From the NCBI GenBank assembly GCA_017409785.1, contig JAFQSD010000002.1, positions 162,597 through 226,596 on the forward strand: a stretch of 64,000 nt of DNA. The letters run 5' to 3'. Under the pieces are notes generated by a model. It searched no databases. It had not been told where the DNA came from and worked only from the letters and a program-made list of their open reading frames with translations. Below, in pieces: positions 6,070 to 51,995 of the stretch. The DNA is from Bacilli bacterium. GTDB lineage: Bacteria > Bacillota_I > Bacilli_A > RF39 > UBA660. The translations under genes and the position numbers were made by a program. Every line of letters starts with the position of its first letter. Position 1 is the first letter of the stretch.

Positions 6070-6230
6070 AAATGTGTGATGATATATTCTTTGTTATAAT
6101 CTTGATTTTACTTTTTACAAATATATCTAACGAATCACATTTATCCGTAGTGGCACCCGCCGAATCTTTCGAAAACCACTAACCTCGTCAACTCTAGGAG
6201 TCCAGGCGCTCTGTTGGATCTACAACCTTT
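6070..6230 (-). promoter_or_regulatory. glmS ribozyme (GlcN6P-responsive self-cleaving riboswitch) in the glmS 5' leader.
   Basis: The minus-strand reading contains AGCGCC…GACGAGGttagtggttttcGAAagattCGGCGGgtGCCac. This matches the conserved glmS ribozyme core (AGCGCC cleavage-site region and the GACGAGG…CGGCGG…GCC pseudoknot core). It lies immediately upstream of glmS, as is typical in Firmicutes. Confidence 0.8.
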
Positions 6231-20984: not shown

Positions 20985-21245
20985 AATATAAAATAAAAAA
21001 ACAGTTTATTATCCACAAAGGGACGAATAACTGTTTAATATCCGCGGTACCACCCAATTTATTATAAAACATTTATAATCACTCGAAGAATAACGGTTCT
21101 TTTCCGACTTACTCTACTCTTAGTTCAAGTAAGTAGCTCGTAGGTGTCTTTCATTTAAATTTTATGTTATTTTTCACCAACCAATAACTCTCTAAAATAA
21201 AATCTTCAACTACTCTTCCTAGTCATCACTGATGCGCTAATTATA
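20985..21245 (-). promoter_or_regulatory. T-box riboswitch leader controlling aspS.
   Basis: On the minus strand, AATTGGGTGGTACCGCGG (reverse complement of 21042-21059) is the T-box consensus. It is followed by the terminator hairpin acagttattcgtccctttgtggataataaactgt and a T-run. Upstream stem-I elements are present: an AGAGAG bulge, a GGTGAAA distal loop, and a candidate specifier …aaaGACAcc (GAC for Asp plus a purine). Confidence 0.75.
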
Positions 21246-27686: not shown

Positions 27687-27747
27687 TGACTACACCACAC
27701 TACTCTATCATTATCTAAATTATATCATAAAGTAAATTATAAACAAA

Positions 27748-27778
27748 CAAAAAAAGAACTAATTTAAGTTCTTTTTTA
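27748..27778 (-). terminator. Rho-independent terminator ending the defence operon upstream.
   Basis: Hairpin aagaactaatttaagttctt flanked by A- and T-runs. Confidence 0.55.
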
Positions 27779-42012: not shown

Positions 42013-42035
42013 AAAGAGCTTATAGCTCTTTTTAA
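42013..42035. terminator. Bidirectional terminator.
   Basis: Hairpin aagagcttatagctctt flanked by A- and T-runs. Confidence 0.55.
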
Positions 42036-42619
42036 TATTTACTAACTATTCTTTCTAATACTTCTTCCCTATCATACGAAGTATCATAAGAAGTAATTTT
42101 ATACTCTTTAAACTTATCATTAAAGAATTTATTTCTTTCCACAAAGTATGTGGAGTTTCCTCTTAATTCTTCATCACTACACCAATAAGTCCAATCATCT
42201 TCAGTATCATACTTCTTCATATTATTATATAAATCATCACTATTAATATCATTATAAGTTAAACCAATAATTTCATACTTATCTTTAAACTTATCACTAC
42301 GTAAGAATGGTATTAACTTTTCAAAATCAATATGAGTACCTTCAATAACAAATTTAACACCATCATAAAATGCATTACCTTCACTTAGTTCAGTAAAGAA
42401 CTTTTCTAAGAAAGGTACTAATCTTGAAGCAGTATCAAATTCATCACCATCATGATGAATTTGTAGTTCAGGATAAGCAGATAATCCACTAATAATATTA
42501 TCAAGACTAATCATACTATAACCTTTTTCTTTAACAAACTTCTTAGCTAAAGTAGTTTTACCACTTCTAGCAGCACCTATAATTAATATATTTTTATCCA
42601 TAGAATCACATCCGTTCAC
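42032..42619 (-). CDS. Small P-loop kinase-like NTPase (zeta-toxin/adenylate-kinase-like fold). It lies downstream of the OLD-family nuclease.
   Basis: Walker A motif NILIIGAARSGKTTLAKKF. Its length is about 190 aa. The start could be M1 or M7 (MDKNIL). Confidence 0.5.
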   Translation of the reverse strand: MNGCDSMDKNILIIGAARSGKTTLAKKFVKEKGYSMISLDNIISGLSAYPELQIHHDGDEFDTASRLVPFLEKFFTELSEGNAFYDGVKFVIEGTHIDFEKLIPFLRSDKFKDKYEIIGLTYNDINSDDLYNNMKKYDTEDDWTYWCSDEELRGNSTYFVERNKFFNDKFKEYKITSYDTSYDREEVLERIVSKY

Positions 42620-42639
42620 ATCAATTTTAGCATAGCTGT

Positions 42640-42700
42640 GAAGTACTAGGATGGTTAATTGTAGTTGTTAAACTTGTACCGTAGTTATATATTAAATGTA
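42640..42700. repeat. Copy 3 (degenerate) of the conserved intergenic element CTAG…TTGTACCNTAGTTA.
   Basis: aagtaCTAGgatggttaattgtagttgttaaaCTTGTACCgTAGTTAtat compared with CTAGTTAGAGATATCATTGTA…TTGTACCCTAGTTA at 45666-45710. Confidence 0.5.
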
Positions 42701-42758
42701 GGAAGAATCATATGAAGAGATAATCAGAAGAAAAAGTACAATTACTTGTACTTTTAAA

Positions 42759-44678
42759 TTACAAATTATTTTCATCAATAAAATCAGATAATAAAATTAT
42801 CAATTTTCTAAATTCAGCCGGCATATTAATAAAAATTTCTTTTTGCTCCTCCCAAGAAACATTTTTTATAAAATTATCAAAATAAACAGCAAGAGATGCT
42901 TTATTAGATGACCAAATGTTTTTACAATATTTATGAGCTTCGAACATATCCGATTTCAATTTTTTTTCAAATAAGCATAAGCTCATCTTTTCAACAAAAT
43001 CCAATTGTGAATATTCTGTTGTTTTATAACTTGGGTATAAACCATCAAAAAAATTTAAAAAAGCCCTTTTAATAGCTGCTGGACGTGAATTAAAATTTTC
43101 TTCATAATACTTTCTTAAAATAAATGGCGGAATAATATTTTCAATTGTCTTAATATTTTTACACACAAAACTTCTTTTGCCCATAATATCCATAACACAC
43201 TTTATCTTTTTCCAATTAGCATTTTCATGATTAAGGTTATCAGAATCAAAAATAATAAAATTATTCTTTGATAACTTATTAAGTTTTACAGCAGGATCAT
43301 CAGTATTTAAATAATCAAATTTATATGCAATATTTATACTACCATTAAATGCATAGTTATAATTATAACCTAGAATAACCTGTTTTTTGTGTTTTATTCT
43401 ACGATAAATATTTAACAAGCTATCTATATAATATATATCTGTAGGTCCTTCTACCCATATTGTACAATTGGATAAAATAATAGATGATGCTCTTTGACCC
43501 AATAGCTGATATAAATTCATATTATCATATATAGAGTTATAAGCAATCTTTTGCGTATCATTTTTATCAACACAAATAATTGCCGTATCAGCGTCGTATT
43601 CATCACATATATCAATCATACTAGAAGAATGTGTTGAAATAAAAATTTGACAATTTTTATATTCTTGTAACTGAGAAACCAATAATCTTTGTAAACCTGG
43701 ATGCAAGTGAATTTCTGGTTCATCAATAAAGATTTTCAACGGACTATCATTATTCATAAATAGGTAAAAGGTGATTGTAATTAATGTTTGTAATCCATCA
43801 CCCAAATTATAAATAGCATATGGCTCTTCATTTGATTCCTTAATATAAATATTAGAATCATCATCTTTTATAAAAATACTTATATCCTTTCCATTGAAAA
43901 AATGATTTGCCACAAATTCTTCATACATAAGAAAACGTTCTCTATCTTTATTTAATCCTAATAACAGTTTTTTCATATCATGATATACTTCTTGTCCTGT
44001 CTTTATTTCTAATGCGCTTAAATTAGGTGAAAAAAAATACTCATTTCTAAACATATTTGACAAACTAACATGATAATCATTACCTTCCGCCCCTAGTTTT
44101 CTCAAACTTAATAAAGAAGGTACAAAAATTGTTTTAGGTGTTTCTATCGTCATTGTATTAATAATAGACTCATATACAATTCTTAAATGTTCTTGTTTAG
44201 TTCTAAGTTCGGCTGTATCATTTAAATATCGAATCGAATCATTTTTCGAAAAAGAATAAGGTGATTTAATTATTTTTTTTGTTTGACAAAGTCCATACAA
44301 ATTACTAGCTCTAAAAGAATATACAAGATTGCAAATAAACAAAGCCAACATTTCTTCATCACGTTCATCCCTATATACTTTTTCTCTTATATTTTCATTA
44401 TACAAATATACTTTTTTAAATTCATTCTTAGAACTTTCATTAAAATAGTTTAATAAATCTACAATAGTCTCTTTAAGTTCTTTAAAAAGAGCGCCATCAC
44501 TAACATAATATTTTTTATCAAATTCACTAGTTAACACTTTTCTCATTAATCTACTTTTTCCACTATTATTTTTTCCAATAAAAACATTCATTTTCTCCAA
44601 ATATAATTTCTTTTCTTCATTTAAAGACACATATTCACTATAATTCGAATCAAGTAAATCAATATATTTTATATACAT
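42759..44678 (-). CDS. OLD-family ATP-dependent endonuclease (fused ABC-type ATPase and Toprim). It may be a class 1 OLD or a fused PARIS (AriA-AriB)-like protein.
   Basis: The ATPase motifs are Walker A GKNNSGKS, signature-like LGDGLQ, Walker B/D-loop KIFIDEPEIHLHP and H-loop ISTHS. The Toprim motifs are IWVEGPTD and IIFDSDN. Confidence 0.75.
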   Translation of the reverse strand: MYIKYIDLLDSNYSEYVSLNEEKKLYLEKMNVFIGKNNSGKSRLMRKVLTSEFDKKYYVSDGALFKELKETIVDLLNYFNESSKNEFKKVYLYNENIREKVYRDERDEEMLALFICNLVYSFRASNLYGLCQTKKIIKSPYSFSKNDSIRYLNDTAELRTKQEHLRIVYESIINTMTIETPKTIFVPSLLSLRKLGAEGNDYHVSLSNMFRNEYFFSPNLSALEIKTGQEVYHDMKKLLLGLNKDRERFLMYEEFVANHFFNGKDISIFIKDDDSNIYIKESNEEPYAIYNLGDGLQTLITITFYLFMNNDSPLKIFIDEPEIHLHPGLQRLLVSQLQEYKNCQIFISTHSSSMIDICDEYDADTAIICVDKNDTQKIAYNSIYDNMNLYQLLGQRASSIILSNCTIWVEGPTDIYYIDSLLNIYRRIKHKKQVILGYNYNYAFNGSINIAYKFDYLNTDDPAVKLNKLSKNNFIIFDSDNLNHENANWKKIKCVMDIMGKRSFVCKNIKTIENIIPPFILRKYYEENFNSRPAAIKRAFLNFFDGLYPSYKTTEYSQLDFVEKMSLCLFEKKLKSDMFEAHKYCKNIWSSNKASLAVYFDNFIKNVSWEEQKEIFINMPAEFRKLIILLSDFIDENNL

Positions 44679-44754
44679 AGCACCACTACTCCTTACTACT
44701 AAATCAAATCGATTTATACCTCCACTATATCATTTTATTCCTCGAAAAAAATAT

Positions 44755-44803
44755 AACTTCCCTGAATGCCCTATTTTACTTCCTTGAATTGTACTTAATG
44801 CCC
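44755..44803. repeat. Copy A of the conserved intergenic element …CTTYCCxGAA…ATTTACTTCCTTGAATxGxACTTxAA….
   Basis: aacttccctgaatgccctaTTTTACTTCCTTGAATtGtACTTaAatgccc. The near-identical core is at 50391-50440. Confidence 0.55.
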
Positions 44804-44813
44804 TTTCTAGACA

Positions 44814-44845
44814 CAAAAAAAGAACTATTTCTAGTTCTTTTATTC
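44814..44845 (-). terminator. Rho-independent terminator after the 225-aa gene.
   Basis: Hairpin aagaactatttctagttctt followed by a T-run. Confidence 0.5.
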
Positions 44846-44916: not shown

Positions 44917-45594
44917 CTAAAAAGGCAACTCATCATCATCCGCATCAGCATCACTAAAGAAGTTCGGATTCTCTCTTTGTAACTTCTTAACTAGTTGAGT
45001 CATCTCAGTCTCAGTAGCTTGTATTACTCTATCATTAATAGGACCTACTTGATTTGCTATAGCAACCATTTCTTCTTCAGTATATCCTCTACCTTCATAA
45101 CATCTTAAGATGTTATCACAAAGTACATTTCTCATAGCCATACTATTATCATAGAAACTTCTTCCAGCATCATCCATTAAAAATACTTTATAAGCTTCTA
45201 TTCTTCTCTTAACATCATCTATTTCTGCTTGTTCCTCATCCTTACCAAGAACTACTTCCTCTGGAATAATACGAGATACTCCATAAGGCATACTTCCCAT
45301 AAGACCTATAACTTCAAATTCTCCTTGGTATCCAACTTCACTCTTATTACCATGGAATACAAATGGACTACTAAAACTAGTTGGAGTCCATTTAAATAAC
45401 TCAATAACCTTACCAGGATGATATACACCAAATACAAATCTATCTTCTTGATAAGAACTACTTACATCTTTAACAACACCTTCAAACCATCCATCATCTT
45501 CTAATAATATCTTACCTTCCCACATATCTCTATCATTAAATTGATATTCATAAGAAGAATCAAAATAACCTTTAATATCAAATAATTTACTCAT
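44917..45594 (-). CDS. Hypothetical protein with an SSB-like acidic C-terminal tip (…DADADDDELPF).
   Basis: No catalytic motif. The last residues DDDELPF resemble the SSB C-terminal DDDIPF interaction tip. Confidence 0.45.
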   Translation of the reverse strand: MSKLFDIKGYFDSSYEYQFNDRDMWEGKILLEDDGWFEGVVKDVSSSYQEDRFVFGVYHPGKVIELFKWTPTSFSSPFVFHGNKSEVGYQGEFEVIGLMGSMPYGVSRIIPEEVVLGKDEEQAEIDDVKRRIEAYKVFLMDDAGRSFYDNSMAMRNVLCDNILRCYEGRGYTEEEMVAIANQVGPINDRVIQATETEMTQLVKKLQRENPNFFSDADADDDELPF

Positions 45595-45661
45595 AAAAAG
45601 AACCTCCCTTAAATTTAGTTATTATTATAACATAGAAATGATAAATTAAAAGAAGTTTTTT

Positions 45662-45725
45662 AGGGCTAGTTAGAGATATCATTGTATATAGTATATTTGT
45701 ACCCTAGTTAAAAGTTACCTAACCA
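45662..45725. repeat. Copy 1 of the conserved intergenic element CTAGTTAGRGATATCATT-N14/15-TTGTACCCTAGTTA-N4/5-TTACYTAAC.
   Basis: ggCTAGTTAGaGATATCATTgtatatagtatatTTGTACCCTAGTTAaaagTTACcTAAC, near-identical to 50611-50669. Confidence 0.6.
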
Positions 45726-45741
45726 GAATCGCACTACAAAA

Positions 45742-47079
45742 CTATTTCTGCTGAGTAATATAAGTATCAATTTCGTCAGAAAATTTAGATAACATTTTTA
45801 TATAATTTTCATAATCAGATTTATCACCTAAAATTCTTGGTGACAATTCTAAATAACTAAATATAGTTCCATTATCTATTCTGGTTTTAAATTCTGAATA
45901 ATACTGCAAAAGAGACTTTTTCTCGATAAACTTATATAAAGAAATATTCTCAACTATTTTACCACTTTTTTGGACACCATTTAATTTTTCATATTTTACA
46001 ATTTCATCATATGAAGAAATATTATAAGGCAATATATATTTACAATCTAAACTATTTTTTAAAGAACTACAAATAGAAATTTGTCTTAAAATACAGGCGG
46101 TACATATTCCACAATGACAAACACCAGATTTTTCTCTATTCTGAAATCCCTTAGAACCCGGCATTTTTGAACAAGTTTTTGAATTTTTTAATAAATCTAT
46201 CCATTCATTAGGAATTAAATCAATAACTTCCGCCTTTGTCATAAAACAAAAAGGATTAATAACTGTAATATTTATTCCTACAGTTTTTAAAATATCATTA
46301 ATATAAAATAAAGTTCTTGGATGAGTAGTTTTAGTTACTTTTCTTCTAAACTCAAATGTAGGATTTAAAGACATAATTCCATTTTCATATATTTTTATTA
46401 TAGGCACTTCATAATAATCAGCATATAACAAAGCAGACCCCAAAAAAATTAGTGAGCGAGTTCTTTGCGTAGAATGCTTCTTTATAGCAAATTGTTTTTT
46501 TTCTACAATAACATGTTCTGAATTTGGACTACTTTTTTTAATAACATCAAATGTCTTTTTTGCTTTGCTTACCTCAGGATCATTAGTTGCATAAGTAACA
46601 TATAAAGTATTATTATTTAGTTCTTGTGAAGCACCTGCCATAGCATCTAAACCACCAGATAATAATGCTACGCTATTAAATTCACTTTTAAATAACCCCA
46701 ACTGTTTCATATTTATATCTAAATGCTTTTTTTCTGTTTGCTTAAACTTAATTTCCCAGTTTTCTCCATTTGTCATAAATCTTATTAAATTTGAAAGTTT
46801 GTCCTCAATCAATTTCATGATTTCAATATTAACAACCTCAACTTCAACTTCAATAGTTTTATAACTATCTTCATTTCTTTTATTATAAAAGTCAATATAA
46901 CAAATAGAAGCAAAAGTATCAAACAAATCAAGTATAAGCGTATTATCATATCGAACAATATCTAATGAATTCTTATCATCATAATGAACTTCACACGGGA
47001 ATTTTTTACTTAAGTCAAAAAAAGATTTAATCATATAGAAATTCCTTTCAAAATAAGTGGAATATGTTCCGTCATCCAC
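45742..47079 (-). CDS. QueC-like PP-loop ATPase (7-cyano-7-deazaguanine synthase-like) with an extra ~140-aa N-terminal domain.
   Basis: VALLSGGLDAMAG is the PP-loop SGGxDS motif. The zinc cysteines are CHCGICTAC…C. It is 445 aa, versus ~220 aa for housekeeping QueC. Confidence 0.7.
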   Translation of the reverse strand: MDDGTYSTYFERNFYMIKSFFDLSKKFPCEVHYDDKNSLDIVRYDNTLILDLFDTFASICYIDFYNKRNEDSYKTIEVEVEVVNIEIMKLIEDKLSNLIRFMTNGENWEIKFKQTEKKHLDINMKQLGLFKSEFNSVALLSGGLDAMAGASQELNNNTLYVTYATNDPEVSKAKKTFDVIKKSSPNSEHVIVEKKQFAIKKHSTQRTRSLIFLGSALLYADYYEVPIIKIYENGIMSLNPTFEFRRKVTKTTHPRTLFYINDILKTVGINITVINPFCFMTKAEVIDLIPNEWIDLLKNSKTCSKMPGSKGFQNREKSGVCHCGICTACILRQISICSSLKNSLDCKYILPYNISSYDEIVKYEKLNGVQKSGKIVENISLYKFIEKKSLLQYYSEFKTRIDNGTIFSYLELSPRILGDKSDYENYIKMLSKFSDEIDTYITQQK

Positions 47080-47687
47080 CCTTCAACATAATTCTCATTA
47101 CCTATATTTAAAACCAATTTATCATAAGCATTTTGAGATATAATTGAATTGGTAATTATCTCAGTAACTGAATTTATTTTTGAATAAATATCTTCATCAG
47201 AAATAGTCTCATATTTTTCTGACAACATTTCAAAAATTGTTCCCTCTATTTTATGTTCAACATAAATAGATATAATCTTTTTAAACATCATAAATCCATT
47301 AGCAAAAGTACCATCAATTCCATTTTCTAATAAAATATCTTTTATAGTTTGCTTTAAAATTGGATCTTCATAATCAACAAAATAATCTGCAATTAGGTCT
47401 ACTTGTTCATTAAAACTATATGAGTCAAATTCTGAAATACCAAATGACAAGGTACCAGATGAAACATAGTTTTCGCTAGTTCTAATTACTTTTTTTATAG
47501 TTCTAATAAAATTAGGACTAGAAAGTGATTTAATTATATGATTTGAAGTATAACTTTCTCGATTATTAGGATATAATAAGGAACCCAGTAATTTCTTTAA
47601 ATCATGAGTATTTATATTAGATGAAGAATTAAGTTCCTCTATTTTTTTCTTAAGTCTTGGAAGTGTATTTCTAGTAGATGTACCCAT
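47031..47687 (-). CDS. Hypothetical protein, operon partner of the QueC-like gene (49-nt overlap).
   Basis: No recognisable motif. It is co-directional and overlapping. Confidence 0.4.
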   Translation of the reverse strand: MGTSTRNTLPRLKKKIEELNSSSNINTHDLKKLLGSLLYPNNRESYTSNHIIKSLSSPNFIRTIKKVIRTSENYVSSGTLSFGISEFDSYSFNEQVDLIADYFVDYEDPILKQTIKDILLENGIDGTFANGFMMFKKIISIYVEHKIEGTIFEMLSEKYETISDEDIYSKINSVTEIITNSIISQNAYDKLVLNIGNENYVEGWMTEHIPLILKGISI

Positions 47688-48856: not shown

Positions 48857-50320
48857 CTAATAAGCAATCTCTAGAAGTTTTTTTGAAACTCTTGCTTGAA
48901 CTTTTGCATAATACGCTGCTTCTACAGAATTTAAACTATCATCTTCCCACTTTTCAAAAGATTTAACTGCCTTTGCATATTTGCTCATGTATGTACCATA
49001 ATCTTTTAGCAATTCAACATCAGTACCATCAGACTTAGAATATTTCTCCATAAAACTAATATACTCATTCATAAATTCTTCATAATTGTCCATAGCTTCC
49101 TTAAACTCTTTTCTCATACCATCTACCATATTAGAAGAATTTTCATTTTTAGTTTCTTTTTTAGACTCTTTTTCAGGAATGACATCTTCGTCATCTTCAT
49201 CATAATCTTCTGGAACATTTAATGCAATTTCAATAACATTTGCACCAGAATATCTTACTGTTAGTTTATAACCATCTTTATTTTCTGCGGAATAATATTT
49301 TTTATCTTTACTATAATCAACCATGAATCCCTTATCTTCACAATCCTCTACATAATCACTATAGTCATCAATAGTCATATTTCCAATATATACAATAAAT
49401 GTTTCACTATTATTCCAAGAAATATTTCCTAAGTTTGATTTTGGCTTAGGGAGTTTACTACCAAGTCCACTCTTTGGCCATTCAATTTCTTCCATTTTTT
49501 TAGGAGCTTCCAAAGTAATATCCATTGTTTTTCCATCTTCATCATAATCACTAAATAAAATTCTAATTGAATATCCTTCTTTATTAAATGCACCATATAC
49601 ATCATCCCATTCTTCATATTCAAGATCTATTGTATACCCAGCAGCAATTACTTTATTAACATAAGTTTTATACTCTTTTTTTGTAATATCATAAATCTCA
49701 ATAGATAACATATCTTTGCTATCAACACTAATTACTCCATACAACTTATCTGGTACTGGAAAATAATCTATTAATTCTACATCAGAAACATCTAATTTAG
49801 TTGGTTTTTCATTATATGACGTAGTATCTCCATTTGTAGTAATTATAGGTATAATAAGTACAAAACCTAAAATAGCTAAAATTATTTTTAATCCTTTAAA
49901 TGGTTCCTTTAAAATCTTCATTCCCATTAACCAAGCACTTATAAATGCTATTGCTTGAATTAAAGTTAAAAATTTTGTTAAAAATCCAGTACATACAAAG
50001 AAAAATAAAACTGCTATTGCAAAGAATACTAATAATACTTTACTAAACTTCCCCTTTTTAAAATTTTCAACCGAATTTAATTCTTCTTTTACTTTCTTTT
50101 CTTTTACTTCTTGTTCTAAAATATCATTTCTTTCTTTTAATGCTTGTTCGTGATTATCTTTACGAGCCTTTAATTTGGCATCCTCTACTCTTTTAATTTT
50201 TGTTGCCTCATCATCTATTAGTATCTCAGCACCACAATAATTACATGTTATTTTTTCTAGATTTTTGTTTGCATCTAAAGTAGCACCACAATTTTCACAT
50301 TTCAATTTTACTAATTTCAT
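48857..50320 (-). CDS. Membrane protein with two N-terminal zinc ribbons, two to three TM helices and an acidic C-terminal domain.
   Basis: CENCG…CNYCG is a double CxxC. The TM helices are LLVFFAIAVLFFFVCTGFL and IILAILGFVLIIPIIT. Confidence 0.5.
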   Translation of the reverse strand: MKLVKLKCENCGATLDANKNLEKITCNYCGAEILIDDEATKIKRVEDAKLKARKDNHEQALKERNDILEQEVKEKKVKEELNSVENFKKGKFSKVLLVFFAIAVLFFFVCTGFLTKFLTLIQAIAFISAWLMGMKILKEPFKGLKIILAILGFVLIIPIITTNGDTTSYNEKPTKLDVSDVELIDYFPVPDKLYGVISVDSKDMLSIEIYDITKKEYKTYVNKVIAAGYTIDLEYEEWDDVYGAFNKEGYSIRILFSDYDEDGKTMDITLEAPKKMEEIEWPKSGLGSKLPKPKSNLGNISWNNSETFIVYIGNMTIDDYSDYVEDCEDKGFMVDYSKDKKYYSAENKDGYKLTVRYSGANVIEIALNVPEDYDEDDEDVIPEKESKKETKNENSSNMVDGMRKEFKEAMDNYEEFMNEYISFMEKYSKSDGTDVELLKDYGTYMSKYAKAVKSFEKWEDDSLNSVEAAYYAKVQARVSKKLLEIAY

Positions 50321-50605: not shown

Positions 50606-50672
50606 GGGAACTAGTTAGGGATATCATTTTAAAAGTTACAATTGTACCCTAGTTAGTAAATTACTTAACTAT
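50606..50672. repeat. Copy 2 of the CTAGTTAG…TTGTACCCTAGTTA…TTACYTAAC element.
   Basis: aaCTAGTTAGgGATATCATTttaaaagttacaatTGTACCCTAGTTAgtaaaTTACtTAAC. Confidence 0.6.
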
Positions 50673-50717: not shown

Positions 50718-51995
50718 ATGAAACTTAGAATTGGAGAAATATTCAGATTATCAAACGATTATAGTACAGATACACAAGAATTTATTGATGGAGTTAAAAA
50801 TTTTATATATTATACAAAATCAAAAAACATTGAATCAACATTCAGATTTGAAAGAGGAATACATAAAACCAAAAAGATCGATGCTATTGATTTTGATAGA
50901 AACCCTATAATAATAGTATCAAGCTCTCCACACAAAGCTGGAACAGATAATACACCATGGAAAGACAGATATGATCCAGATAACGGAACAGTAATATACT
51001 ATGGTGATTGTAAAAGTAATGAAACAAATCCAGCGGATGCAAGTGGAAATAAAATATTAATGAAAGAATGGGAAAATCATAGTTCAAATGATACAAAAAA
51101 AAGAGAAAAGGCAACTCCTATCGTTTTTTTTGAAAGAATAAAAATGGGATACTTACAATTTCATGGTATTGGAGTATTAGAAAAAGTAAGTCTTATTACA
51201 CAAAAAGGAAAAGAAAATGAATTTACTAATTTTGAATTTGAGTTCTGCATATTAGACTTATCAAGAGAAAATAATTTACTTGATTGGGAATGGATATCTG
51301 ATAGATGTGATAAAGAGAAAAATATTACTGAAGCAAACCAAAAAGCTCCTAATTCATGGAAATATTGGATAAAAAATGGTAACGATAAAATTGAAAAAAT
51401 AAGAAGACATGTTTTAAAATCTAAAATAGTAAAAGAAAAAGAGCAAAAAATTCCTAATGGTTCTTTTGAAGAAAAAATATTAAAAAAAATTGAAAATCAT
51501 TATAAAGGAAAAGAACTAAAATTCGAATTGTTCGCATTACAGATAACGCAATTCTTTTTCGCAGATAATAATATCAAATATTTAGATGGATACATTACAA
51601 AAGGCTCAGGAGATAAAGGAATAGATTTTATATCTAGAATTGATATTGGACAAGATATTTCAGGAATAAAATTAATTGTAATCGGACAAGCAAAATGCCA
51701 AAATAGTACTATTAGTAGCAAAGATATAGCAAGAACTATTGCAAAATTAAAAAGAAACTATGTAGGAGTATTTGTGACCAATTCGACGTTTTCACAACAA
51801 ACACAAGAAGAAATCCTGGAAGATCAATATCCATTAATTATGATAAACGGAAAGAAAATAGCAGAATTAACAAATAAATATATTCTTGGTAGTTCTAAAG
51901 ATTTAAATAAACTACAAGAGTATCTCAATAATCTTGACGTACAATATGAAACATATAAAAGTAATATTAGACCAGATGATATAATATATAAATAA
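50718..51995 (+). CDS. Mrr-catalytic-domain restriction endonuclease with an N-terminal ~250-aa putative modified-DNA sensor domain (type IV-like).
   Basis: The C-terminus GDKGIDFISRIDIG…LIVIGQAKCQ…GVFVTNSTFS matches the Mrr_cat PD-(D/E)XK pattern (GxxGxD…GQxK). The N-terminal domain is uncharacterised. Confidence 0.6.
   Translation: MKLRIGEIFRLSNDYSTDTQEFIDGVKNFIYYTKSKNIESTFRFERGIHKTKKIDAIDFDRNPIIIVSSSPHKAGTDNTPWKDRYDPDNGTVIYYGDCKSNETNPADASGNKILMKEWENHSSNDTKKREKATPIVFFERIKMGYLQFHGIGVLEKVSLITQKGKENEFTNFEFEFCILDLSRENNLLDWEWISDRCDKEKNITEANQKAPNSWKYWIKNGNDKIEKIRRHVLKSKIVKEKEQKIPNGSFEEKILKKIENHYKGKELKFELFALQITQFFFADNNIKYLDGYITKGSGDKGIDFISRIDIGQDISGIKLIVIGQAKCQNSTISSKDIARTIAKLKRNYVGVFVTNSTFSQQTQEEILEDQYPLIMINGKKIAELTNKYILGSSKDLNKLQEYLNNLDVQYETYKSNIRPDDIIYK

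Follow-up and report, generated by a model that had tools for sequence, protein, structure and literature searches.

The C-terminal tip of SSB, the bacterial single-stranded DNA-binding protein, is the docking site for at least 12 replication, repair and recombination enzymes and is pursued as an antibiotic target. To our knowledge, all natural proteins that are known to carry this tip are SSBs. The tip reads DISDDDLPF in Staphylococcus aureus and Bacillus subtilis and DDDIPF in Escherichia coli (PMC5531588). Clients of B. subtilis SSB include PriA, RecG, RecQ, RecJ, RecO, DnaE, SbcC, RarA, XseA and Ung, among others (PMC3000357), and the Sak annealase of phage 80alpha needs the last seven SSB residues for efficient annealing (PMC11846896). 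In Streptococcus mutans UA159, the last three residues of SsbA, LPF, suffice to make GFP a target of ClpXP in vivo, where it is degraded, and changing the L or the P abolishes degradation; the recognition is strain-dependent, being absent in three of six S. mutans strains and in E. coli (PMC5143411). Plasmid SSB, PsiB and ArdA act on host single-stranded DNA (ssDNA) and repair pathways (PMC8744291). Here, we describe a gene from a 64,000-nucleotide stretch of the genome of an uncultured Bacilli bacterium (contig JAFQSD010000002.1, positions 162,597 to 226,596; hereafter the window) which encodes a 225-residue protein that ends in an SSB-type tip and whose body is, as judged from its predicted fold, not that of an SSB.

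The family to which the protein belongs is unnamed, and the protein is its founding member here. Our preferred reading, which we hold tentatively, is that the family consists of mobile mimics of the SSB tip that would serve as decoys or adaptors and interfere with invading DNA. The gene had been picked out in a reading of the DNA letters alone (the sequence-only reading) as a 225-codon open reading frame (ORF) with an SSB-like tail. Translation confirmed both coordinates and tail, with the correction that the gene lies on the minus strand. The gene and the parts of its product are:

44917..45594, minus strand: coding sequence of the 225-residue protein, stop codon included (ORF call and translation)
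45256..45594, minus strand: N-terminal domain, residues 1-113, eight consecutive antiparallel beta strands (AlphaFold2, block-mean confidence 91-98)
44971..45243, minus strand: helical domain, residues 118-208, four helices, ending in the basic motif VKKLxK (secondary structure of the model and family alignment)
44920..44970, minus strand: disordered linker and SSB-like acidic tip, residues 209-225, NPNFFSDADADDDELPF (low model confidence and tail logo)

A conserved SSB-type tip in an unnamed protein family

The start codon ATG occupies positions 45594-45592 and the stop codon TAG positions 44919-44917. The protein starts with MSKL and ends with DADADDDELPF, the final seven residues being encoded by GAT GAT GAT GAG TTG CCT TTT (44920-44940). 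A first search returned 106 homologues, none of them named and none with a Pfam domain. Among the 92 that were near full length, 83 end in an acidic run followed by [LF]PF. A logo built from 87 distinct family tails gives D D D [D/E] L P F for positions -7 to -1. Proline and phenylalanine are invariant (87/87), leucine is present in 82 of the 87 and the four acidic positions are D or E in 75-90% of the tails; positions -8 to -14 are variable. As the tip is conserved while the linker varies, it is the tip that is under selection. When about 1,200 ORFs from the window and from 46 loci were compared, such a tip was present in family members only, and this restriction, together with the logo, led us to reject a chance motif. 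The family consensus DDDDLPF reproduces the Gram-positive SSB tip, and hence that of the lineage of the host, with S. aureus and B. subtilis as the reference, and the tip in the window, DDDELPF, differs from it by one conservative change. The proposal that the tail mimics the SSB tip is hence borne out by the conserved logo and by the match to the Gram-positive DDDLPF.

The tip is kept down to 38% protein identity (L032) and is also found in the very divergent members P0133, P0197, P0210 and P0131. P0133 (189 residues) ends in ...KRVRSSDDDLPF, where the tip is added onto a basic KRVR tail typical of tip-less relatives; P0231, a 113-residue fragment, ends in a tandem tip, ...DDDLPFYDDDDLPF. The appended tip of the one and the tandem tip of the other point to modular gain of the motif. 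An exhaustive profile search extended the family to 288 representative clusters. Most of the distant ones are 155-200 residues long and tip-less and share the N-terminus MxKLxDIKGYW and the core; many tip-less relatives stop at or just past the basic motif VKKLVKK, or in a basic tail. On a core-only tree of 213 sequences, a simple neighbour-joining tree of divergent sequences, at least 23 gains or losses of the tip are needed. Because of this number, we conclude that the tip is a modular, selected feature, which behaves as an address label added to a conserved core.

Nearly all matches in genomes are to metagenome-assembled genomes (MAGs) that come from the gut of goat, rabbit, human or other hosts and that belong to uncultured Bacilli, Erysipelotrichaceae or 'Tenericutes', a distribution with which the GC content of the window (about 26%) is consistent. 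The ratio of nonsynonymous to synonymous substitution rates (dN/dS) against close relatives is 0.22-0.34 and the gene is therefore under purifying selection. Tip-bearing and tip-less paralogues occur together in the same MAGs (L031 with L032, L021 with L036), and the tip-less subclade has housekeeping neighbours such as GlmM, SpoVAD, dUTPase and an ATP-binding cassette (ABC) transporter. The family was absent from 50,697 phage records, 72,556 plasmids and the IMG/VR viral contigs, and an origin as a phage or plasmid gene was rejected on these zero matches.

Predicted fold of the 225-residue protein

The protein was modelled as a single chain with AlphaFold2 on a 62-sequence alignment of the family, with a predicted local distance difference test score (pLDDT) of 91.3 and a predicted template modelling score (pTM) of 0.83. 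Most of the invariant residues of the family fall in the N-terminal beta domain (W25, G27, F37-E38-G39, F55-G56, L66, K68, P77, Y89, G91 and G105). The tail appears disordered, with block-mean pLDDT values of 50-55 over residues 211-225 and residues 217-223 fall below 50. Searched with Foldseek, the beta domain found its best local matches in avidin, lipocalin and nitrobindin barrels, among them wilavidin with a probability of 0.99 and a target-normalised TM-score of 0.6; all were weak, with E-values of about 0.02-0.1 and 8-14% sequence identity. No OB-fold protein was among the Foldseek matches of the model, and neither Pfam nor a profile search of Protein Data Bank (PDB) sequences returned an SSB or OB match.

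None of Pfam, PADLOC, NCBIfam and PHROGs returned a significant match to the 225-residue protein, and when all 62 alignment members were run against Pfam at E-values up to 1 only scattered noise appeared (Apolipoprotein, Phage_TAC_1). The profile search of PDB sequences gave nothing meaningful for the family, and ten longer superfamily members, checked as possible domain fusions, were devoid of Pfam domains. In Pfam, PDB sequences and Foldseek, the protein did not resemble ArdA, Ocr or any other known mimic. A 21-residue tail peptide had zero matches in PDB sequences, for which composition filtering is the probable cause. The protein is strongly acidic, with an isoelectric point (pI) of 4.39 and 44 D/E against 23 K/R residues, and so is each domain (the beta domain has a pI of 4.58, the helical domain one of 4.69). 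Such values do not fit the basic and aromatic surface with which SSBs bind ssDNA. Given the predicted non-OB fold and the acidity of both domains, we conclude that, by this model, the 225-residue protein is not an SSB and that it is unlikely to bind DNA. The predicted body is a non-OB, acidic, novel two-domain architecture in a family without a structural relative. The sequence-only reading had seen no OB-fold signature and had named structure prediction as a check; the body has now been modelled, and the eight antiparallel strands and the helices of the model as well as the Foldseek results uphold that view.

The gene as a one-gene cassette and its relatives in mobilizable elements

DNA homology to four related loci (L044, L008, L045 and L004; protein identity 69-96%) covers the gene and about 112 bp upstream, from 45706 to about 44917. 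The homology starts at 45704-45706 in these loci and at 45630 in a fifth, L046. The remaining neighbours all differ among the relatives, whose proteins are 68-96% identical, are for the most part of a defence type and include Shedu, GmrSD, KAP NTPases, restriction-modification systems and SNF2/MutH-like genes. The upstream boundary lies 36 bp past the stop codon of the preceding gene, a QatC homologue described below, and the cassette is therefore an independent insertion. Hence we conclude that the family gene is an independent one-gene cassette with cassette-like mobility. A PADLOC scan of 144 neighbours of tip-bearing members identified MADS components, AriA, AbiLi, an ATPase-Toprim protein, a restriction endonuclease (REase), DpdE/ZorD, PbeA and PD-T4-6.

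In another set of loci (L009-L013, L015, L016, L028, L055-L058), the family gene lies directly 3' of a gene for a Mob_Pre (MobV) relaxase, and wherever the contig reaches far enough, the relaxase is preceded by a large serine recombinase with the domains Resolvase, Recombinase and Zn_ribbon_recom. Such integrative and mobilizable elements (IMEs) extend over positions 265-7340 in L010, 2661-9575 in L028 and 975-6641 in L055, all from MAGs of gut Bacilli, and these three carry two to four defence cargo genes each. The cargo 3' of the family gene is variable and includes SLATT_4 with SMODS/AGS_C, Abi_2, Ser/Thr kinases and a 929-residue protein without a Pfam domain. Between L009 and L010, the Mob proteins are 24% identical and the family proteins 83%; between L010 and L028, the Mob proteins are 92% identical and the family proteins 53%. 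The slot after Mob is thus conserved while the modules reassort. Fragments of the recombinase and Mob genes flank the family gene in L005, L006, L022, L019 and L016. No serine recombinase or relaxase homologue was found in the window or in L004, L008 and L044-L046. The suggestion that the gene might encode a mobile-element protein therefore stands in part: members of the family follow Mob_Pre directly in at least nine other loci, but the window itself has no mobility genes.

A different placement is seen for P0037, a family gene that is identical in three contigs. Together with a downstream block of small genes, it lies directly after recG in L001 and L002, both contigs from uncultured microbiomes, and after mfd in L003, which could be an insertion-site preference. 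RecG and Mfd both have a RecG_dom3_C domain. Yet another tip-bearing context is an islet rich in helix-turn-helix (HTH) proteins with an AAA_5 protein and DUF7192.

Expression signals and flanking repeats

The following putative signals and conserved elements surround the gene:

45624..45632, minus strand: extended -10 promoter element, TGTTATAAT (sequence match, putative function)
45603..45610, minus strand: ribosome-binding site, AAGGGAGG, 8 nt 5' of the ATG (read from the sequence)
44815..44845, minus strand: intrinsic terminator, a hairpin with the core AAAGAACUAgaaaUAGUUCUUU followed by a U-run (RNA fold)
45666..45710, minus strand: 45-nt repeat, TAACTAGGGTACAA...CTCTAACTAG, where the segment in common with related genomes has its upstream edge (found by repeat and pattern searches)
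44717..44844, minus strand: 128-nt element downstream of the gene, conserved and with the terminator at its start (BLASTN matches in related loci)

The same extended -10 element is present 5' of the family genes in the IME locus L010, and L009 has TGATATAAT. The ribosome-binding site, a strong one, is kept in related loci, inside positions 77-116 of the upstream element. The terminator hairpin folds with -17.8 kcal/mol (z = -5.66), a value not reached by any of 200 shuffled sequences; a consensus scan had overlooked it owing to its AT-rich stem. In L009, the mob gene terminates at a hairpin just 5' of the family gene. From these predicted signals, the family gene reads as an autonomous unit with its own promoter, ribosome-binding site and terminator.

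The 45-nt repeat family (TAACTAGGGTACAA...ATGATATCTCTAACTAG) has three copies in the window, all in one orientation, the two further ones at 42643-42687 and 50611-50655, and none of 100 shuffles reached this count. Two copies lie directly 5' of minus-strand genes, and the copy at 50611-50655 is intergenic between the divergent genes 48857-50320 (minus) and 50718-51995 (plus). The repeat may serve as an operator, as a promoter module or as a junction at which recombination exchanges cassettes. The 128-nt element has BLASTN matches in L008 (8686-8813), L045 (11100-11235), L046 (10698-10822) and L004 (7702-7786) and, past the hairpin, consists of a conserved stretch with two GGGCATT motifs. In related islands it is sometimes found 3' of other genes; its sole look-alike in the window, at 27747-27775, is one of the hairpin, and the element had no Rfam match. 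The gene had been described as flanked by both repeat families, which holds for the 45-nt repeat with its two further copies but, in the window, only for the hairpin of the 128-nt element. The flanks are a promoter-proximal repeat and a terminator-containing element and not a clear pair of element ends. No known RNA family lies near the gene. Elsewhere on the minus strand of the window there are a T-box leader (21016-21235, 149.9 bits) and a glmS ribozyme (6072-6221, 72.2 bits), ordinary Firmicute cis-regulators which confirm a chromosomal Bacilli background.

The defence island and the adjacent QatB-QatC pair

The gene had been placed inside a defence island, and the defence genes at 40-61.5 kb of the window corroborate this. 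The content of the island includes a NERD protein, an OLD/Gabija/AriA-like ATPase, the 225-residue protein and a QatB-QatC pair, along with a DUF4238 protein, a DUF6591 protein and an Mrr/AspBHI-type enzyme. The ATPase (639 residues, AAA_21/AAA_15; 42759-44678, minus strand) has its best PADLOC matches in AriA, Old, GajA and PtuA, and no obvious partner (GajB, AriB or PtuB) adjoins it. The family gene and a gene for a 195-residue AAA_33-like P-loop protein (42032-42619) bracket a variable slot (42032-44678 in the window), which is filled by the OLD/Gabija-like ATPase in the window, by a KAP NTPase in L046 and by genes for proteins of 257 and 775 residues in L008. Compared across the window, L046, L008 and L044, the bracketed slot has the look of a defence hot spot whose anchors are conserved.

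Upstream of the family gene lies:

45742..47687, minus strand: minimal QatB-QatC pair without QatA (KAP NTPase) or QatD (TatD) (PADLOC, NCBIfam and MGTS motif)

The QatC-like protein (445 residues) was detected by PADLOC (1.8e-38) and NCBIfam (2.5e-45), in the latter case with 155 bits against an equivalog cutoff of 280 bits. Since it scores below this cutoff, we label it a divergent QatC of low-GC Bacilli. The start of its gene is overlapped by an ORF of 218 codons (47031-47687) whose product begins with MGTS, the conserved QatB motif. QatBC alone suffices for defence against some phages (PMC13279940).

Discussion

Given the identity of the family tip with that of Gram-positive SSBs, the tail of the 225-residue protein would dock into the pockets by which genome-maintenance proteins recognise SSB. 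Phage-encoded SSB clients, e.g. annealases, would be equivalent targets, and the reliance of 80alpha Sak on the SSB tip makes a decoy plausible. With a body that is not expected to bind ssDNA, the protein would work off the DNA, either as a competitor and decoy against SSB for its partners or as an adaptor that joins an SSB client to the binding partner of the conserved beta/helical core. As far as can be read from the sequence, it probably plugs into or competes for the SSB network without binding DNA. The protein would travel as cargo of IMEs and defence islands in uncultured gut Bacilli. It is because of this genomic setting that we lean, with some reserve, towards interference with the replication or recombination of invading DNA, which would amount to a single-gene defence of the decoy type. 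RecG, a known SSB-tip client, is encoded beside the family gene in L001 and L002, and we also count in favour of a decoy or adaptor that the tip-less paralogues have housekeeping contexts and reside alongside tip-bearing ones in the same MAGs. The sequence-only reading had interpreted the gene in a similar way, as a non-SSB protein in a defence island that could recruit or hijack SSB-interacting factors. The acidic non-SSB body, the SSB-type tip and the island all stand; what the tip does is, in both accounts, taken from the identity of its sequence.

Several observations weigh against this interpretation. The mechanism we propose leans on the identity of a short motif, and a few members have degenerate tips (DLLF, GILF, DLPYN) or end inside the acidic run. 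At least one tip-bearing lineage, P0092, is located next to GlmS and TilS in a chromosomal locus that is stable and ordinary, and several further tip-bearing contexts are not obviously defence-related or mobile. The 225-residue protein has no recognisable effector or enzymatic domain and a defence role would therefore be stoichiometric. An unregulated competitor for the SSB tip should be costly to the host, yet the putative promoter looks strong. The fixed slot after Mob fits a role in the service of the element as well as it fits a cargo role. Finally, S. aureus PriA did not bind the isolated SsbA tip peptide in vitro, so that tip-only interactions in Gram-positive bacteria can be weak (PMC5531588).

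If the fixed slot is given most weight, the protein would be an establishment or anti-defence helper of the IME that serves the element rather than the host. Its tip would keep host RecJ, RecQ, SbcC and Ung off the transferred single strand, or would recruit PriA and DnaE for synthesis of the complementary strand, and the copies in chromosomal islands would be remnants of such elements. The constant position directly after the Mob_Pre relaxase across two Mob families that are only 24% identical, the decoupling of family-protein phylogeny from the backbone seen in the comparisons of L009, L010 and L028, the recombinase and Mob fragments beside the gene in five loci and the strong acidity of the protein are all in line with this, as is the fact that conjugative plasmids commonly have SSB-related genes (ssb) and genes for acidic DNA mimics (ardA) for early establishment (PMC8744291). 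We nevertheless consider such a helper unlikely, as an intact, selected gene with what appears to be its own promoter is present in the window and five islands without relaxase or recombinase, as the family gene and mob are, by their predicted signals, separate transcription units, and as no family member turned up in sequenced plasmids, phages or IMG/VR contigs. Another explanation sees no relation to the SSB hub and takes the tail for an acidic tail of a generic kind or for a DNA mimic. The acidic body and tail would bind a basic DNA-binding surface, e.g. that of a restriction enzyme, of a nucleoid protein or of the protein's own VKKLVKK helix (as an autoinhibitory latch), and the terminal PF would be no more than an anchor. 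SSB tips are known to fold back on the OB domain, which we count in favour of a latch of this kind, together with the overall pI of 4.4 and the conserved basic motif directly before the linker, at or just after which tip-less relatives commonly end. It appears rather improbable to us, however, because a family hexapeptide that is identical to the Gram-positive SSB tip and holds steady while the linker drifts is more specific than a generic tail would call for, AlphaFold2 leaves the tail undocked on the body (pLDDT about 50) and neither ArdA, Ocr nor other known mimics resemble the protein in Pfam or the PDB. The LPF terminus could also be mainly a ClpXP degradation tag, the protein being held at a low level and accumulating when ClpXP is saturated or inhibited, with the resemblance to SSB incidental or due to a shared degron. 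LPF is sufficient in SsbA of S. mutans UA159 (PMC5143411), and no positions of the tail vary less than L, P and F (82/87, 87/87 and 87/87). Against this stand the strain dependence of recognition (PMC5143411) and the four upstream acidic residues that the family keeps, as SSB tips do, although LPF alone suffices; moreover, both functions are compatible and SSB itself has both. We regard a tip that is mainly a degron as improbable; were it only that, the finding would be ordinary and much less remarkable.

The two remaining alternatives can be regarded as effectively excluded. The 225-residue protein might have been a fourth Qat component, a substitute for QatD that acts with QatB-QatC, since its gene lies 147 bp 3' of the QatC-like gene on the same strand, in the usual position of QatD. 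This is very improbable: no QatC neighbour was found in more than 50 other loci (called-gene tables and neighbour clustering), the DNA homology with relatives begins only past the QatC stop codon, the gene has its own putative promoter, the protein has no TatD or Qat match in Pfam, PADLOC or NCBIfam and starts with MSKL and not MGTS, and QatBC is already enough for defence against some phages (PMC13279940). Membership in a Qat operon was rejected for the missing co-occurrence elsewhere and for the homology boundary just past QatC. A highly divergent but genuine ssDNA-binding SSB, which the tip and the disordered linker but no other trait would fit, is barely conceivable. It was rejected on account of the fold, which in the AlphaFold2 model consists of eight consecutive antiparallel strands and a helical domain instead of a five-strand OB barrel, of the charge (pI 4.4-4.7, with both domains acidic) and of the lack of any SSB or OB match in Pfam, the PDB profile search and Foldseek.

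Full-text literature searches on the motif, on mimicry of the SSB C-terminus and on SSB tails in defence or conjugation returned no description of a non-SSB family with an SSB tip. The family may be the first mimic of the SSB tip outside the SSBs to be described, a mobile one-gene module on a non-DNA-binding scaffold that would titrate or redirect SSB clients in a new, enzyme-free mechanism of conflict among bacteria, phages and mobilizable elements, with the tip as a swappable address label. We put this broader claim forward as a possibility that is on balance doubtful. The tip would act as such a label because the core occurs with and without it and because it has been gained or lost many times. 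If true, the SSB hub would be targeted by motif mimicry in genetic conflicts, nature would have provided a competitive inhibitor or adaptor of the SSB interactome that is usable as a tool, and the family could represent a new enzyme-free class of defence or counter-defence.

Comparison with known systems

The family is unnamed and lacks both a Pfam model and a structural relative. With the up-and-down barrels of avidin, lipocalin and nitrobindin the predicted model shares eight consecutive antiparallel strands, but there is no family-level match and an extra helical domain is packed after the strands. The LPF degron of S. mutans SsbA and SsbB has the C-terminal LPF in common with the family, and each of L, P and F is required in it (PMC5143411); it is strain-specific and three residues long, whereas the family keeps four more acidic residues. 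Single-gene defence cassettes likewise are autonomous units with their own promoter and terminator that occur among known defence genes in many arrangements and as IME cargo beside CBASS-like, Abi_2 and kinase systems. The family differs from them in having no enzymatic, nucleic-acid-binding or membrane effector domain and no PADLOC match, and linear-motif mimicry of a host hub protein is without described precedent among defence systems in the searchable literature. The conjugative leading-region proteins plasmid SSB, PsiB and ArdA are also small, often acidic and located on transferable elements (PMC8744291), and the relaxase-adjoining position of the family gene in IMEs fits this group as well. 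Sequence and fold similarity to them is absent, though, and the family gene, which is not found on sequenced plasmids, is also kept in chromosomal islands without transfer genes.

The closest likeness is that to bacterial SSB itself, SsbA of Firmicutes, which has the same disordered C-terminal segment ending in a DDDLPF-type tip (PMC3000357, PMC5531588). The 225-residue protein departs from it in having no OB fold and, with both domains acidic, no predicted ssDNA binding, and the family linker is short (about 10-15 residues) where that of SSB is long and rich in Gly, Pro and Gln. The housekeeping SSB gene resides in a context of the rpsF-ssb-rpsR type, whereas the family gene resides in islands and mobilizable elements.

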